Source: an uncultured cyanobacterium (GTDB lineage: Bacteria > Cyanobacteriota > Cyanobacteriia > PCC-6307 > Cyanobiaceae). Taken from it: 64,000 nt of DNA. This document shows, piece by piece, positions 28 through 5,794 of the stretch. The notes under the pieces were generated by a model, which made no database searches, had not been told where the DNA came from, and was given only the letters and a program-made list of their open reading frames with translations. Each line of letters opens with the position of its first letter. Positions within the stretch are counted from its first letter, which is position 1. The stretch covers positions 1 to 64,000 of the forward strand of contig CAVONQ010000001.1 in assembly GCA_963697335.1 (NCBI GenBank), in the 5' to 3' direction. Both the position numbers and the translations under genes were made by a program.

Positions 28-2934
28 ATGGCTGAAACATCTATCAAAAACGATGTCTTCAAGTTTGTCGCTTTGCGTCCACCTACTAAACGAAAGATCC
101 AACCTCTATCACCGGGTCGCATCGTAGATACGCGACAGGTGAATGACACTCCTGTCGGCAGGATCATTCGGAAACTGGGAAGCAATGCCAATATGGACCG
201 GGTACTACCCCAGGTAAAGCGACTTATCAACGAGAAGAACTGGTCCTCGGAGATTATCAGGGACCAGGATGTAGCAACTATCGCGGCAACGTACCGAGCC
301 ATCGACGAGCAACTGCAGAACTTTTCTACTGAAGGCTTCGTCAAGTCGATTGAAGAGGCACTTGGTTCATCCCCAAAAGACTTTATTCAAAGCGAGTCGG
401 CAAATTATATTCGCGAGGGCTTGTGGGACCGATTACATGCCTTCTACCTATTAAATCGTGAGACTCCGGTTAACCTTGAAGAAATCATCGGCGGACTGCG
501 CGCTTTCCACATTGTTGAATCGTTGGCAAACGGCGAGCAATTTAGTTCAGCGGATGACCTTAGAGAGGCTTTGAATGCCGTAGTACTGCTACCTAATTCA
601 CTCGTGCGCATCGCACCTGTCACGTCCACAGAGCGTCCACGCGTTCGCGAACAGCAGGAACGCGATAAGGCTAAACGTGAACATTTTGTTAGCCTTTGGG
701 TCAGATACATCGAATTGAATAAAGCGGTTGATGACGTTCAACGACTAAATCCGAAAATTGAGGTGATAAAAGAAACACCGAAACCTGTATTGTACAAACA
801 GGAAATTGACATACCTCAGACAGCAACAAATGCGACAACGGATCGTGCATTGTTATCTGTCTCGATGCAGCGCTTCCCGAAGTTCGAAAAAGCCGATATC
901 AATGCATTGAGTCCCGCAGCTCATGCCGCAATTACACTTATTAATAAGGAGCCGGAGTTTAAAGATAAATTCGAAGCGTTAAACAAACTGCACGATGAAT
1001 TATCCAGTGTGACTGTGCAACTTCTATCTATTAAAGATCCGACACTTACGGAAATGATGCCTGATGAAGCAAGGCAACTACCTGCTTCCCTGACTATAAT
1101 GGCAAGAAATGAATATTTATCTAGCCTGGGATTTTCCGAATTACCATCGCCATTCCCGTATCCTTGGAAAATTAATTCACGGATTCGGCCGCTTGGTATT
1201 GGGGATCTCAAGGTTGTAAAACAAATCTTGCAGCAGTATGTTGCCGGCGAAGTCGCACACATCGAAAACGTGCTTCAGGGCGAGTCAAAAGAGCGCAAAC
1301 ACCGTATATTGGATCGAAACGAGGAGATTGTTACTGCCGAGTTGGAGACCTCCGAGGACACCGAACGCGACACGCAGACGACTGACCGTTTTGAGTTAAA
1401 AAAAGAATCAGAAAAAACAATTCAAACTGATATGAGTGTATCTGCCGGTGTTACGGTCAGTGCATCCTATGGCCCCGTCCAACTCGGTGCAAATGCCAAC
1501 TTTGCCTACAGTCAATCTCAGACAGATACAACACGGACTTCGTCAAACTACGCTCGTGACGTTGTAGACCGTTCAGTGACAAGAATTCAGAAAAAAACGC
1601 GCGAAGAACGAGTAACCAAAGCCCTCCACGAGGTTGAGGAAATTAATACCCATGGTTTGAACAATGCGGAAGGAACAGGAAATATTACAGGAGTATATCG
1701 CTGGGTGGATAAATATTACGAGGCACAGATTTACAACTATGGAAAACGCATGATGTTCGAATTTATCGTGCCCGAACCAGCCGCATTCTATATTTATTCT
1801 CAAAACAACAATCCAGCCAAAGCCATTAATCTGGAAAAACCGAAACCTCTTGGTAACATCACACACAAAGATATTACAGAATCGAACTATCATATCTTTA
1901 TCCGTGATTACAATGTGCAAGGAGTAACTCCGCCACCTCCGGAATATCATAGACTCGGGATCGCATTTGATCAGTCAGGCATGCAGCCAGACCAAGACAC
2001 AACAAAATCGAGTCACGACCTCGTCGTTCCCGATGGATATGCTGCGGTAGACTGGTTCGGTCAGGGAAACTACAGGTATTGGACAGGGCATGAGGCAGAC
2101 ATGAATTTGTGGATAGGAATAAAGGGGGGACATTTGGGAACATACCTTGACCCAGCACCGCTAAGTGGTGAGGACATGGTCGTTCCCGTAGCAATAGTAG
2201 CTGGTCAAATATCATCATACGCCTACACAGTTGAAATACATTGTGAACGGACTAGGCGTCATTACAAACAATGGCAGATCGATACGTTTGAGAAAATTAT
2301 GGCTGCGTATAAAGCAGCTATGGCTGAATACGAGGATAGACTGCGCGCCGCTGAAGCGCGGGTTGGTATCGCTATCACCGGCCAAAATCCAACCATCAAT
2401 CGAGAAATCGAACGTACAGAGATGAAGAAAAGCTGTCTTACGCTACTAACCGGAGAGCGTTACGAAAACTTCAACTCCATGAGTGGAGAACCACCCGAAA
2501 TCGATCTTGTGGATGCGGCAGAGGAAGGCAGATTTATTCAGTTTTTTGAACAAGCCTTCGAGTGGGAACAAATAACCTATCTATTCTACCCGTATTTCTG
2601 GGGTCGTAAGGATAAATGGGTAACGAATTCGACGACCTTCGACAATGATCCGTTATTTACAAAGTTTCTGCAGGCCGGTGCCGCGCGCATCGTTGTACCG
2701 GTCCAGCCCGCCTATAACGATGCGATCCTCTATTATTTGCAGACCGGGGATTTATGGAATGGAGGAGATCCGCCTGTTATCGATGATCCTCTTTATATCG
2801 CGTTGTACGAAGAGTTAAAGGATCAACAGGACGATCTTGGCAATGCGACACCGGAAGGCGATCCATGGAAAGTAGTCTTGCCAACGACTTTGGTTTGGTT
2901 GCAGCAAGGGCCTGAACTTCCAGTCTTCATATAA
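28..2934 (+). CDS. Uncharacterised 968-aa protein with a candidate beta-pore-forming/translocon-like central region
   Basis: Long ORF with RBS AAGAGGAG at 13-20. Ser/Thr-rich alternating segment DMSVSAGVTVSASYGPVQLGANANFAYSQSQT (about aa 468-499). No Sec signal. The CDS is secure; the function is inferred. Confidence 0.85.
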   Translation: MAETSIKNDVFKFVALRPPTKRKIQPLSPGRIVDTRQVNDTPVGRIIRKLGSNANMDRVLPQVKRLINEKNWSSEIIRDQDVATIAATYRAIDEQLQNFSTEGFVKSIEEALGSSPKDFIQSESANYIREGLWDRLHAFYLLNRETPVNLEEIIGGLRAFHIVESLANGEQFSSADDLREALNAVVLLPNSLVRIAPVTSTERPRVREQQERDKAKREHFVSLWVRYIELNKAVDDVQRLNPKIEVIKETPKPVLYKQEIDIPQTATNATTDRALLSVSMQRFPKFEKADINALSPAAHAAITLINKEPEFKDKFEALNKLHDELSSVTVQLLSIKDPTLTEMMPDEARQLPASLTIMARNEYLSSLGFSELPSPFPYPWKINSRIRPLGIGDLKVVKQILQQYVAGEVAHIENVLQGESKERKHRILDRNEEIVTAELETSEDTERDTQTTDRFELKKESEKTIQTDMSVSAGVTVSASYGPVQLGANANFAYSQSQTDTTRTSSNYARDVVDRSVTRIQKKTREERVTKALHEVEEINTHGLNNAEGTGNITGVYRWVDKYYEAQIYNYGKRMMFEFIVPEPAAFYIYSQNNNPAKAINLEKPKPLGNITHKDITESNYHIFIRDYNVQGVTPPPPEYHRLGIAFDQSGMQPDQDTTKSSHDLVVPDGYAAVDWFGQGNYRYWTGHEADMNLWIGIKGGHLGTYLDPAPLSGEDMVVPVAIVAGQISSYAYTVEIHCERTRRHYKQWQIDTFEKIMAAYKAAMAEYEDRLRAAEARVGIAITGQNPTINREIERTEMKKSCLTLLTGERYENFNSMSGEPPEIDLVDAAEEGRFIQFFEQAFEWEQITYLFYPYFWGRKDKWVTNSTTFDNDPLFTKFLQAGAARIVVPVQPAYNDAILYYLQTGDLWNGGDPPVIDDPLYIALYEELKDQQDDLGNATPEGDPWKVVLPTTLVWLQQGPELPVFI

Positions 2935-5794: not shown

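Follow-up and report, generated by a model that had tools for sequence, protein, structure and literature searches.

A foreign two-gene cassette in a picocyanobacterium pairs a long-form protein-arginine deiminase with a large unannotated protein and suggests an undescribed toxin or defence module

We analysed a stretch of 64,000 nucleotides (nt), hereafter the window, from an uncultured cyanobacterium of the family Cyanobiaceae (assembly GCA_963697335.1, contig CAVONQ010000001.1, positions 1 to 64,000). Its first 6 kb carry two large open reading frames (ORFs) of foreign base composition: ORF1, which encodes a protein of an unannotated family, and ORF2, which encodes a long-form protein-arginine deiminase (PAD). 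Both lie between the boundaries of one integron-type cassette, and the analyses described here suggest that this foreign two-gene cassette is an undescribed toxin or defence module. The genes and boundaries are as follows, with lengths in amino acids (aa).

1-3, + strand: left cassette boundary, the last three bases of a GTTAGGC core that closes a docking element of ~165 bp
15-20, + strand: GAGGAG, a Shine-Dalgarno-like motif read from the sequence, 7 nt 5' of the ORF1 start codon
28-2934, + strand: ORF1, 968 aa, constant component of the module, unannotated family
2939-5794, + strand: ORF2, 951 aa, long-form protein-arginine deiminase (PAD family)
5857-5931, + strand: attC, the right cassette boundary, with R'' (GCCTAAC) at 5857-5863 and R' (GTTAGCG) at 5925-5931; the GC step lies here

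An initial annotation of this DNA had described two low-GC ORFs of ~950 aa only 4 nt apart, and the description was accurate: the genes, of 968 and 951 aa, are on the same strand with a 4-nt spacer. The GC content of positions 1-6000 is 0.44-0.47, compared with 0.57-0.76 across the rest of the window, and that of the cassette block is 46% against ~69% for the genome. GC at third codon positions was 0.45 in ORF1 and 0.46 in ORF2 versus 0.79 in the neighbouring P450 gene.

The ORF2 protein matched the Pfam PAD family (PF03068) in three stretches with 123.4 bits (cut-off 25, E 1.5e-35), and its sequence matches in the PDB were PAD4, PAD3, PAD1 and PAD2, with an E value of 4e-24 for PAD4. The alignment with PAD4 spans the WxQD, PR, GHxDE and HCGTN motifs, and within it D228, R250, H484, D486 and C942 of ORF2 align with the catalytic and substrate-binding residues of PAD4. 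All five residues were invariant in an alignment of 41 sequences, in agreement with the initial annotation, which had reported intact PAD catalytic motifs and singled out C942. The codons concerned are listed below.

3620-3622, + strand: codon of D228, which aligns with the first catalytic Asp of PAD4
4388-4396, + strand: codons of H484-I485-D486, the predicted catalytic His and Asp
5762-5764, + strand: codon of C942, the predicted catalytic nucleophile in HCGTN

An AlphaFold2 (AF2) model of ORF2 had a predicted local distance difference test score (pLDDT) of 90.9 and a predicted template modelling score (pTM) of 0.89. The top Foldseek matches of the model were all PAD4, PAD3, PAD1 or PAD2 structures, the best being human PAD4 (1wda; E 3.8e-26, 801 columns, TM score (target) 0.56). 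Judged from its sequence and its model, ORF2 is a genuine PAD-family enzyme with a predicted complete active site and a confidently predicted PAD fold. It shares with the vertebrate and bacterial PADs (PF03068; human PAD4, 1wda) the domain, the catalytic residues and the overall fold, in which a beta-domain precedes the catalytic domain. It is unlike them in being ~300 aa longer than the vertebrate enzymes, which in the model is due to several helical insertions in the catalytic domain, and in being strictly linked to a gene of the ORF1 family. In addition, the positions that align with E351 and E353 of PAD4, presumably Ca2+ ligands, are occupied in the ORF2 family by invariant glutamines (Q229 and Q231), and calcium control may therefore differ. 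The accessible portion of the paper on a cyanobacterial PADI (Cummings et al. 2021, PMC8826395) has no wording on operons, toxins, secretion, genomic context or neighbouring genes.

The genomic setting of PAD genes was surveyed in 73 metagenome loci, 27 of them with a long-form PAD and 46 with other matches (short canonical PADs or fragments). Where at least 1 kb of sequence was available upstream, a same-strand ORF1 homolog lay directly upstream of the long-form PAD gene in 21 of 22 loci, with 6-431 nt between the end of the ORF1 homolog and the estimated PAD start. The remaining locus (L132) has an ORF1 homolog on the opposite strand, and none of the 22 was without one. The end of ORF1 was still visible in two of the five long-form loci with less than 1 kb upstream. 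Among the 46 other PAD matches, an ORF1 homolog was found in one, itself a shortened long form. These counts showed that long-form PADs are encoded almost exclusively next to and after an ORF1 homolog, and the two genes, as the initial annotation had proposed, are a real and conserved functional pair.

The same relationship was then viewed from ORF1, in 80 GTDB loci, with a partner defined as the same-strand ORF starting -120 to +450 nt from the ORF1 end; the partner calls were mechanical, and a few in high-GC loci look spurious. A partner ORF was present just downstream in 76 of the 80 loci; among those without one, the contig ends too early in two and an opposite-strand gene comes next in two. 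Pfam matches were obtained for 36 of the 76 partner ORFs, and they were diverse: PAD (7), patatin (6), PT-TG (5, one also with CdiA_C), Het-C (3), WHH/colicin-DNase (3), Tox-MPTase4 (2), EndoU (2) and OmpA (2), together with single cases of PT-HINT plus GIY-YIG, LodA, amine oxidase, Amidase_3 plus SPOR, and DUF1508. The partner in one locus (L067) had a below-cut-off match to DNA_pol3_gamma_R_C only. The alternatives to PAD thus comprise patatin phospholipases, Het-C-like hydrolases, oxidases and pre-toxin proteins of the PT-TG or PT-HINT type, the last with heads that are nucleases, peptidases or other toxins. The seven loci with a PAD partner come from different phyla and have the same gene order. 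With the window included, the 77 partners fell into 37 BLASTP clusters, so that the survey of ORF1 neighbourhoods for swappable enzymes, which the initial annotation had called for, did return exchangeable enzyme and toxin partners.

Immunity genes of the SUKH type were found 3' of the WHH partners in three loci (L046, L048 and L055), with one further SUKH gene in L060, and EndoU or deaminase domains occurred in the third gene of three loci. Small Trypco1 (Pepco) proteins adjoin ORF1 homologs in 4 of the 80 loci: their genes precede ORF1 in two (L032 and L038) and separate it from the Het-C partner in the other two (L043 and L045). The neighbours in 20 loci (115 proteins) were otherwise heterogeneous and included no secretion-system genes, and the genes upstream of ORF1 homologs were not conserved. 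No N- or C-terminal motif shared among the partners was seen by eye, and a search for ORF1-toxin fusions in the range 1695-4840 aa returned none, a result that counts as weak evidence.

Exchange of partners was also apparent from a quick ORF1 tree, with SH-aLRT support only. In this tree the patatin-linked ORF1 of L047 is sister to the PAD-linked ORF1 of L015, and the window ORF1 falls not in the main PAD-linked clade but among Het-C- and patatin-linked ORF1s. Of the loci retrieved, L012 has the ORF1 closest to that of the window (67% identity), and its partner belongs to the Het-C cluster; the window PAD is closest to PADs whose ORF1 is only ~42% identical to that of the window. These relationships indicate that partners have been exchanged.

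One reading of the locus gives the adjacency of ORF1 and ORF2 no functional meaning: two unrelated foreign genes would happen to share one cassette, as integron cassettes can hold unrelated genes and ORF1 has no assigned function. It is contradicted by the linkage counts, as the same-strand ORF1 neighbour is kept across 21 long-form loci with PAD identities of 24% to 56%, the order recurs in the seven GTDB loci, and the spacer in the window is 4 nt. We consider this reading exceedingly improbable. The counts from both sides instead establish a self-contained module of two genes, in which ORF1 stays constant and the effector gene beside it can be swapped. The best explanation of the pair in the window is that ORF1 and ORF2 are such a self-contained, horizontally mobile two-gene effector module, here captured as one integron-type cassette.

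The ORF1 protein itself had no match in Pfam, NCBIfam, PADLOC, PHROGs or the PDB. Pfam gave nothing at E<=1 except a chance match to DUF3206; no PDB chain was matched at E<=1 by the single sequence, and a profile search of the PDB gave chance matches only. PHROGs searched with 32 members of the ORF1 family returned nothing consistent, and the ESM Atlas returned unnamed clusters only. The family is nevertheless large, with 337 proteins at E<=1e-3 among 8000 candidates scored and 4252 representative clusters from bacteria and archaea in the full profile search. In GTDB species genomes at least 534 of 599 candidate stretches were confirmed as ORF1 homologs; they come from many bacterial phyla, and the matches listed also include two from archaea (L028 and L036). 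The homologs in L018 (a Thermoanaerobaculaceae metagenome-assembled genome) and L030 (Caballeronia) are 91% identical over the C-terminal 600 aa, which indicates recent transfer between phyla. Based on the AF2 model and the alignment of the family, we divided ORF1 as follows.

115-1122, + strand: N-terminal helical domain (aa ~30-365), AF2 pLDDT mostly 75-91, fast-evolving
1165-1827, + strand: best-conserved core (aa ~380-600), with highly charged segments on either side of the hairpin and dense invariant columns
1432-1521, + strand: predicted amphipathic Ser/Thr/Gly-rich beta-hairpin (aa 469-498), with alternation of hydrophobic and Ser/Thr/Gly/polar residues
1936-2253, + strand: beta-sandwich (jelly-roll-like) domain (aa ~637-742), modelled with confidence by AF2, as is the stretch ~600-777
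2380-2931, + strand: conserved C-terminal region (aa ~785-968), modelled as mostly helical, many invariant columns

For every class of partner, the N-domain has diverged far more rapidly than the C-terminal 600 aa; in one pair of ORF1s the C-terminal part was 91% identical and the N-domain 62%, and in another pair the values were 87% and 54%. The idea that the N-domain tracks the class of the partner was rejected, as divergence was similar for pairs with the same and with different partners. A near-invariant motif at the extreme N-terminus (aa 9-18, window 52-81; consensus DVFKFVALRPP) is kept despite this rapid divergence, and may be a recognition or export signal. In L067 (Flavobacterium) the partner of ORF1 begins with this motif too and could be an ORF1 paralog in tandem; a tblastn search with the window ORF1 gave no match to it. 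Two other Flavobacterium loci (L041 and L049) have two ORF1-family paralogs in tandem.

The core is a gap-free block in 32 sequences, and AF2 modelled it with pLDDT <50. Within it, the amphipathic Ser/Thr-rich hairpin noted in the initial annotation is present as a sequence pattern: the alternation runs through aa 469-498 and is gap-free and near-invariant in the 32 homologs, with AF2 strands at 473-481 and 484-492, again at pLDDT <50. Indeed, the best-conserved parts of ORF1 had pLDDT <50 for residues 363-600 and mostly <50 for 777-968. Structure searches, which the initial annotation had proposed for both proteins and which recovered the PAD fold for ORF2, gave no PDB match at E<=1e-3 for ORF1 in Foldseek; matches in BFVD had TM scores of <=0.10 normalised by the query. 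Residues 637-742, compared by VIA-align wide, had generic sandwich matches only, the best being FlhE (4qxl; Z 8.2, rmsd 3.4, 101 aligned).

Consistent with the earlier statement that neither protein has a Sec signal, the N-termini of ORF1 and ORF2 are polar by hydropathy analysis, and in both proteins the most hydrophobic 19-residue segment lies away from the termini and scores weakly (Kyte-Doolittle values of 1.42 and 1.66). The same analysis showed no transmembrane helix in ORF1. Of the system that had been proposed, a pore- or translocon-like protein with a PAD, the PAD and the pairing stand; for the pore or translocon there is no sequence match, no informative fold match and only a low-confidence hairpin. 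A function of ORF1 as a pore or translocon is unproven and is treated here as a candidate role only.

The conserved core of ORF1 is rich in invariant arginines (R423, R426, R430, R454 and others), which together with the tight linkage to PAD genes brought to mind another arrangement, in which ORF1 would itself be the toxin or a structural effector. The partner would then be no cargo but an accessory enzyme that modifies ORF1 or the producer's surface, with the PAD, for example, citrullinating ORF1 arginines and so triggering assembly. The same arginines are invariant in ORF1s whose partners are phospholipases, nucleases or oxidases, which makes a PAD-specific activation step unlikely as a general mechanism. 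Moreover, a partner that has pre-toxin domains and comes with an immunity gene is itself a toxin. We regard the accessory-enzyme arrangement as improbable.

Since the window starts at base 1 of its contig (C1 of an assembly of 18 contigs), its left side had to be read across a contig end. The end of contig C7 overlaps window positions 1-5363 with 99.5% identity (15 mismatches and 9 gap openings). ORF2 is broken into fragments in the C7 copy and intact in the window copy, which has all the family-invariant residues. Independent metagenome contigs of run X1 that cover parts of ORF1 and ORF2 had no indels relative to the window version, and independent metagenome contigs matched the window copy without indels at 4048-4607 and 5192-5778. 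Overlaps of ~5-11 kb with 97-99.6% identity and small indels were seen at several contig ends (C7/C1, C1/C14, C4/C17, C3/C18 and C12/C13), which indicates that the assembly holds redundant, error-bearing ends. Because other contig ends overlap likewise, we read C7 and C1 as one locus, with C7 providing the upstream context.

When the locus is read in this way, the remainder of the docking element that closes at the left cassette boundary lies on C7 (221341-221510), the end of which joins the window start. A 97% identical copy of the element is present on contig C16 (1874-2014), where homology ends at GTTAG and a MazE/MazF pair follows (1164-1849, - strand, of locus L092, which is C16:1-9000); a putative attC after this MazF cassette folded no better than shuffled sequences (z 0.2 and 0.9). 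The docking element was also found in 4 of 31 other genomes of the genus (G012, G008, G031; loci L175-L183), with four full-length copies in G012. The DNA that follows the element differs and has below-genome GC in the copies examined (the G012 slot, L179, C16 and C7), and in this respect the element resembles an attI-type or array-leading site. An integron integrase of this genome was identified on C16 (4662-5597; TIGR02249, 466 bits against a cut-off of 265), in an ORF at 4656-5735 (- strand) of L092, which is not adjacent to the cassette locus. An IS91-like unit (Y2_Tnp transposase and tyrosine recombinase, L092 2301-4264) lies between the integrase and the C16 docking element, and this unit is also present at the start of contig C2.

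The syntenic locus of G012 shares with the window locus the upstream gene, the docking element and two small downstream ORFs. Between GTTAG and the small ORFs, G012 has a different insert of 3.6 kb with 42-48% GC, which encodes a GmrSD_N restriction-type protein of 544 aa, a HipA kinase of 417 aa and a 106-aa ORF (2453-5793, - strand, of L184, which is G012:C1:513500-521500). ORF1 was not found in the 30 relatives examined, 18 of them of the same genus.

The attC at the right boundary was judged from its core motifs and from folding energy relative to shuffled sequences. It forms an imperfect hairpin between R'' and R' with one unpaired base, and the sixth base of R' is C rather than the R of a GTTRRRY-like core. 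As single-stranded DNA it folds with -31.1 kcal/mol (z = -6.0), and none of 200 shuffles was as good. Several contigs of a public activated-sludge run match the hairpin core alone and have unrelated sequence on both flanks; in contigs of runs X1 and X2 the matches are confined to 5857-5921, and GTTAGGC or GTTAGAC cores occur a few bases past the hairpin core. The recurrence of this core with unrelated flanks indicates one attC family common to different cassettes. A crude genome-wide attC scan was not specific, giving 117 matches in this GC-rich genome.

Taken together, these findings identify ORF1 and ORF2 as one 5.9-kb integron-type cassette in a variable slot, and the initial annotation, which had placed both genes upstream of one attC on one cassette, was upheld by the hairpin and by the docking site. 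With the attC core criteria, a looser fold-energy threshold and no requirement for end pairing, no sites were found downstream of 27 other PAD loci, so that the cassette form is peculiar to this genome. The cassette resembles known integron cassettes and clusters of attC sites lacking integron integrases (CALIN) in its attC with R'' and R' cores, its insertion at a GTTRRRY core, its foreign GC and the presence of an integrase elsewhere in the genome. It is unlike them in that a single 5.9-kb cassette holds two large genes, typical integron cassettes holding one short ORF, and in that the docking element at this locus is not beside the integrase.

Because the partners of ORF1 homologs include pre-toxin domains, immunity genes and enzymes that act extracellularly, we favour a role in antagonism against other cells, with ORF1 as a Sec-independent, oligomerising, membrane-active carrier and its partner as cargo, and we give this reading a probability of roughly 45%. 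ORF1 would be the non-enzymatic part, its fast-evolving N-domain would recognise the target, and its conserved core with the amphipathic hairpin would insert into the membrane. The partner would be the damaging cargo, acting in the present case by irreversible citrullination of arginines in target proteins, and release would be Sec-independent, for example by lysis. The further proposal that the ORF1 family is the carrier or translocon of an unrecognised Sec-independent two-gene toxin-delivery system, spread over bacteria and some archaea with a freely exchanged cargo gene, and that citrullination is a new toxin activity against competitors or grazers, is one that we advance only tentatively and hold to be possible rather than probable. 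If this toxin-delivery reading were true, it would provide the first biological role for a bacterial PAD lineage.

Several observations weigh against antagonism through a membrane-active carrier. Searches of Pfam, the PDB and folds gave ORF1 no homology or fold match to a pore-former, translocon or secretion component, and the hairpin region is modelled at pLDDT <50. The hairpin is also near-invariant across phyla, which is unusual: the membrane-spanning hairpins of pore-forming toxins tend to preserve the pattern and not the residues themselves. Export signals are missing from both proteins, and the pair has no linked genes for lysis or secretion. There is no candidate immunity ORF between the ORF2 stop (5794) and the attC (5857), and no small ORF is conserved after PAD genes elsewhere. 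As to the partners, 40 of 76 are without a Pfam match, and in high-GC loci some of these ORFs may have been called in error. The Trypco1/Pepco genes next to ORF1 homologs in four loci favour an intracellular role, and the slot that holds the cassette here holds a GmrSD-type restriction enzyme and a HipA kinase in G012.

Some of these same observations would be expected of an intracellular abortive-infection (anti-phage) module, in which ORF1 would be a cytoplasmic sensor whose N-domain detects a phage cue and releases or activates the partner as a death effector, with the hairpin possibly adding membrane damage. Neither protein carries an export signal, and the gene pair is a self-contained unit of high mobility; rapid evolution of the N-domain would suit a sensor, and patatin and nuclease partners are also typical defence effectors. 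Besides the Trypco1/Pepco genes and the GmrSD and HipA genes, a PNP_UDP_1 gene upstream of ORF1 in L047 and the integron context, with the MazEF cassette after the other copy of the docking element, point in this direction. Set against them, ORF1 has no NTPase or other signalling domain, and PT-TG, PT-HINT and CdiA_C partners with SUKH immunity genes are characteristic of toxins that leave the cell rather than of latent suicide effectors, as are LodA, amine oxidase and peptidoglycan-directed partner domains. The PADLOC check suggested in the initial annotation was negative, with no family of PADLOC-DB 2.0 matching either protein at E<=1, which does not thereby exclude a new system, and no link between citrullination and phage defence was found in the literature searched. 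On balance we consider an abortive-infection role possible and the main rival, less probable than antagonism, which stays the favoured reading.

The pair has features in common with three groups of known systems. The binary A-B toxins (anthrax PA with LF/EF, clostridial C2 and iota, and Vip1/Vip2) are likewise encoded by adjacent genes, one for an enzyme and one for a large protein that has no enzymatic activity but an amphipathic, Ser/Thr-rich hairpin, and there too one carrier family is used with different enzymes. ORF1 is unlike their carriers in having no similarity to Binary_toxB, PA14 or any PDB chain and no fold match; Sec signals are lacking on both ORF1 and ORF2.

The polymorphic toxin systems, as described in the accessible part of a review (Zhang et al. 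2012, PMC3482391), similarly combine a constant part with highly variable toxin heads. Pre-toxin domains of these systems, PT-TG (5 loci) and PT-HINT (1 locus), are present in partners of ORF1 homologs, as are the WHH, EndoU, Tox-MPTase4 and Het-C toxin domains, and SUKH immunity genes occur in sister loci. The constant part of the present module differs in being a separate gene of an unannotated family and not an N-terminal trafficking domain of the toxin, and the window cassette has no immunity gene. No known trafficking domain (type V, VI and VII secretion systems (T5SS, T6SS, T7SS), RHS and others) was detected in ORF1 or ORF2 with Pfam or in the neighbours of the 20 loci. That part of the review (PMC3482391) makes no mention of PAD or deiminase, citrulline, patatin or LodA, and no paper was found that combines protein-arginine deiminase with polymorphic toxins. 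In a survey of PT-TG proteins, as far as its accessible portion goes, many have no other recognisable domains, and a partner of the ORF1 type is not described.

The protease-Pepco/EACC1 modules, in the portion of the report at hand (bioRxiv 10.1101/2025.11.14.688446), pair a conserved protein with alternative death effectors, some of them pore-forming, and Trypco1/Pepco are there described as protease-activated death effectors of anti-phage systems. The resemblance extends to the Trypco1/Pepco genes beside ORF1 homologs in four loci. In contrast to the conserved protein of those modules, ORF1 has no protease, NTPase or known sensor domain, and it has no PADLOC match. We rate the kind of system, a constant component with polymorphic effectors, as already known and the constant protein itself as undescribed. 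Defence modules with a constant component and variable effectors reportedly include that of Kaur et al. 2020. No description of an ORF1-PAD module was found in the literature, in line with the initial annotation, which knew of no system with this pairing; supplementary tables were outside the search, and Pandoomain Tables S1 and S2 might list PT-TG partners.

These findings bear on bacterial PADs, on the ORF1 family and on picocyanobacterial integrons. The role of bacterial PAD-family enzymes is unknown, and it becomes testable because one whole PAD subfamily is now tied to a conflict module. An unannotated family of >4000 clusters is the fixed partner of a catalogue of toxins and a strong candidate for a new delivery or activation machine; with 40 of the 76 partner ORFs lacking a Pfam match, the neighbours of ORF1 are a ready source of new toxin domains. 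Finally, an integron-type docking site in a picocyanobacterium took up a 5.9-kb two-gene conflict module, and in a relative the slot holds restriction and toxin-kinase genes.

The surroundings of the cassette had several further features. On the C7 side, the conserved upstream gene is separated from the docking element by a sulfatase gene (L003 12498-14132; ~58-62% GC), which G012 lacks at the syntenic position. Just past the cassette, the 185 nt from the attC to the small-ORF block (5932-6115) have no counterpart in G012. The block itself (window 6153-6954) contains two small ORFs, one of 145 aa with a lipoprotein-like N-terminus and one of 114 aa, which are 83% identical at the syntenic place in G012. 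Further downstream, in a region of intermediate GC (~60-67%), are genes for two small Nif11-domain proteins (7452-7688 and 7788-8024, both - strand) and, in the same region, the cytochrome P450 gene (8933-10633, - strand).

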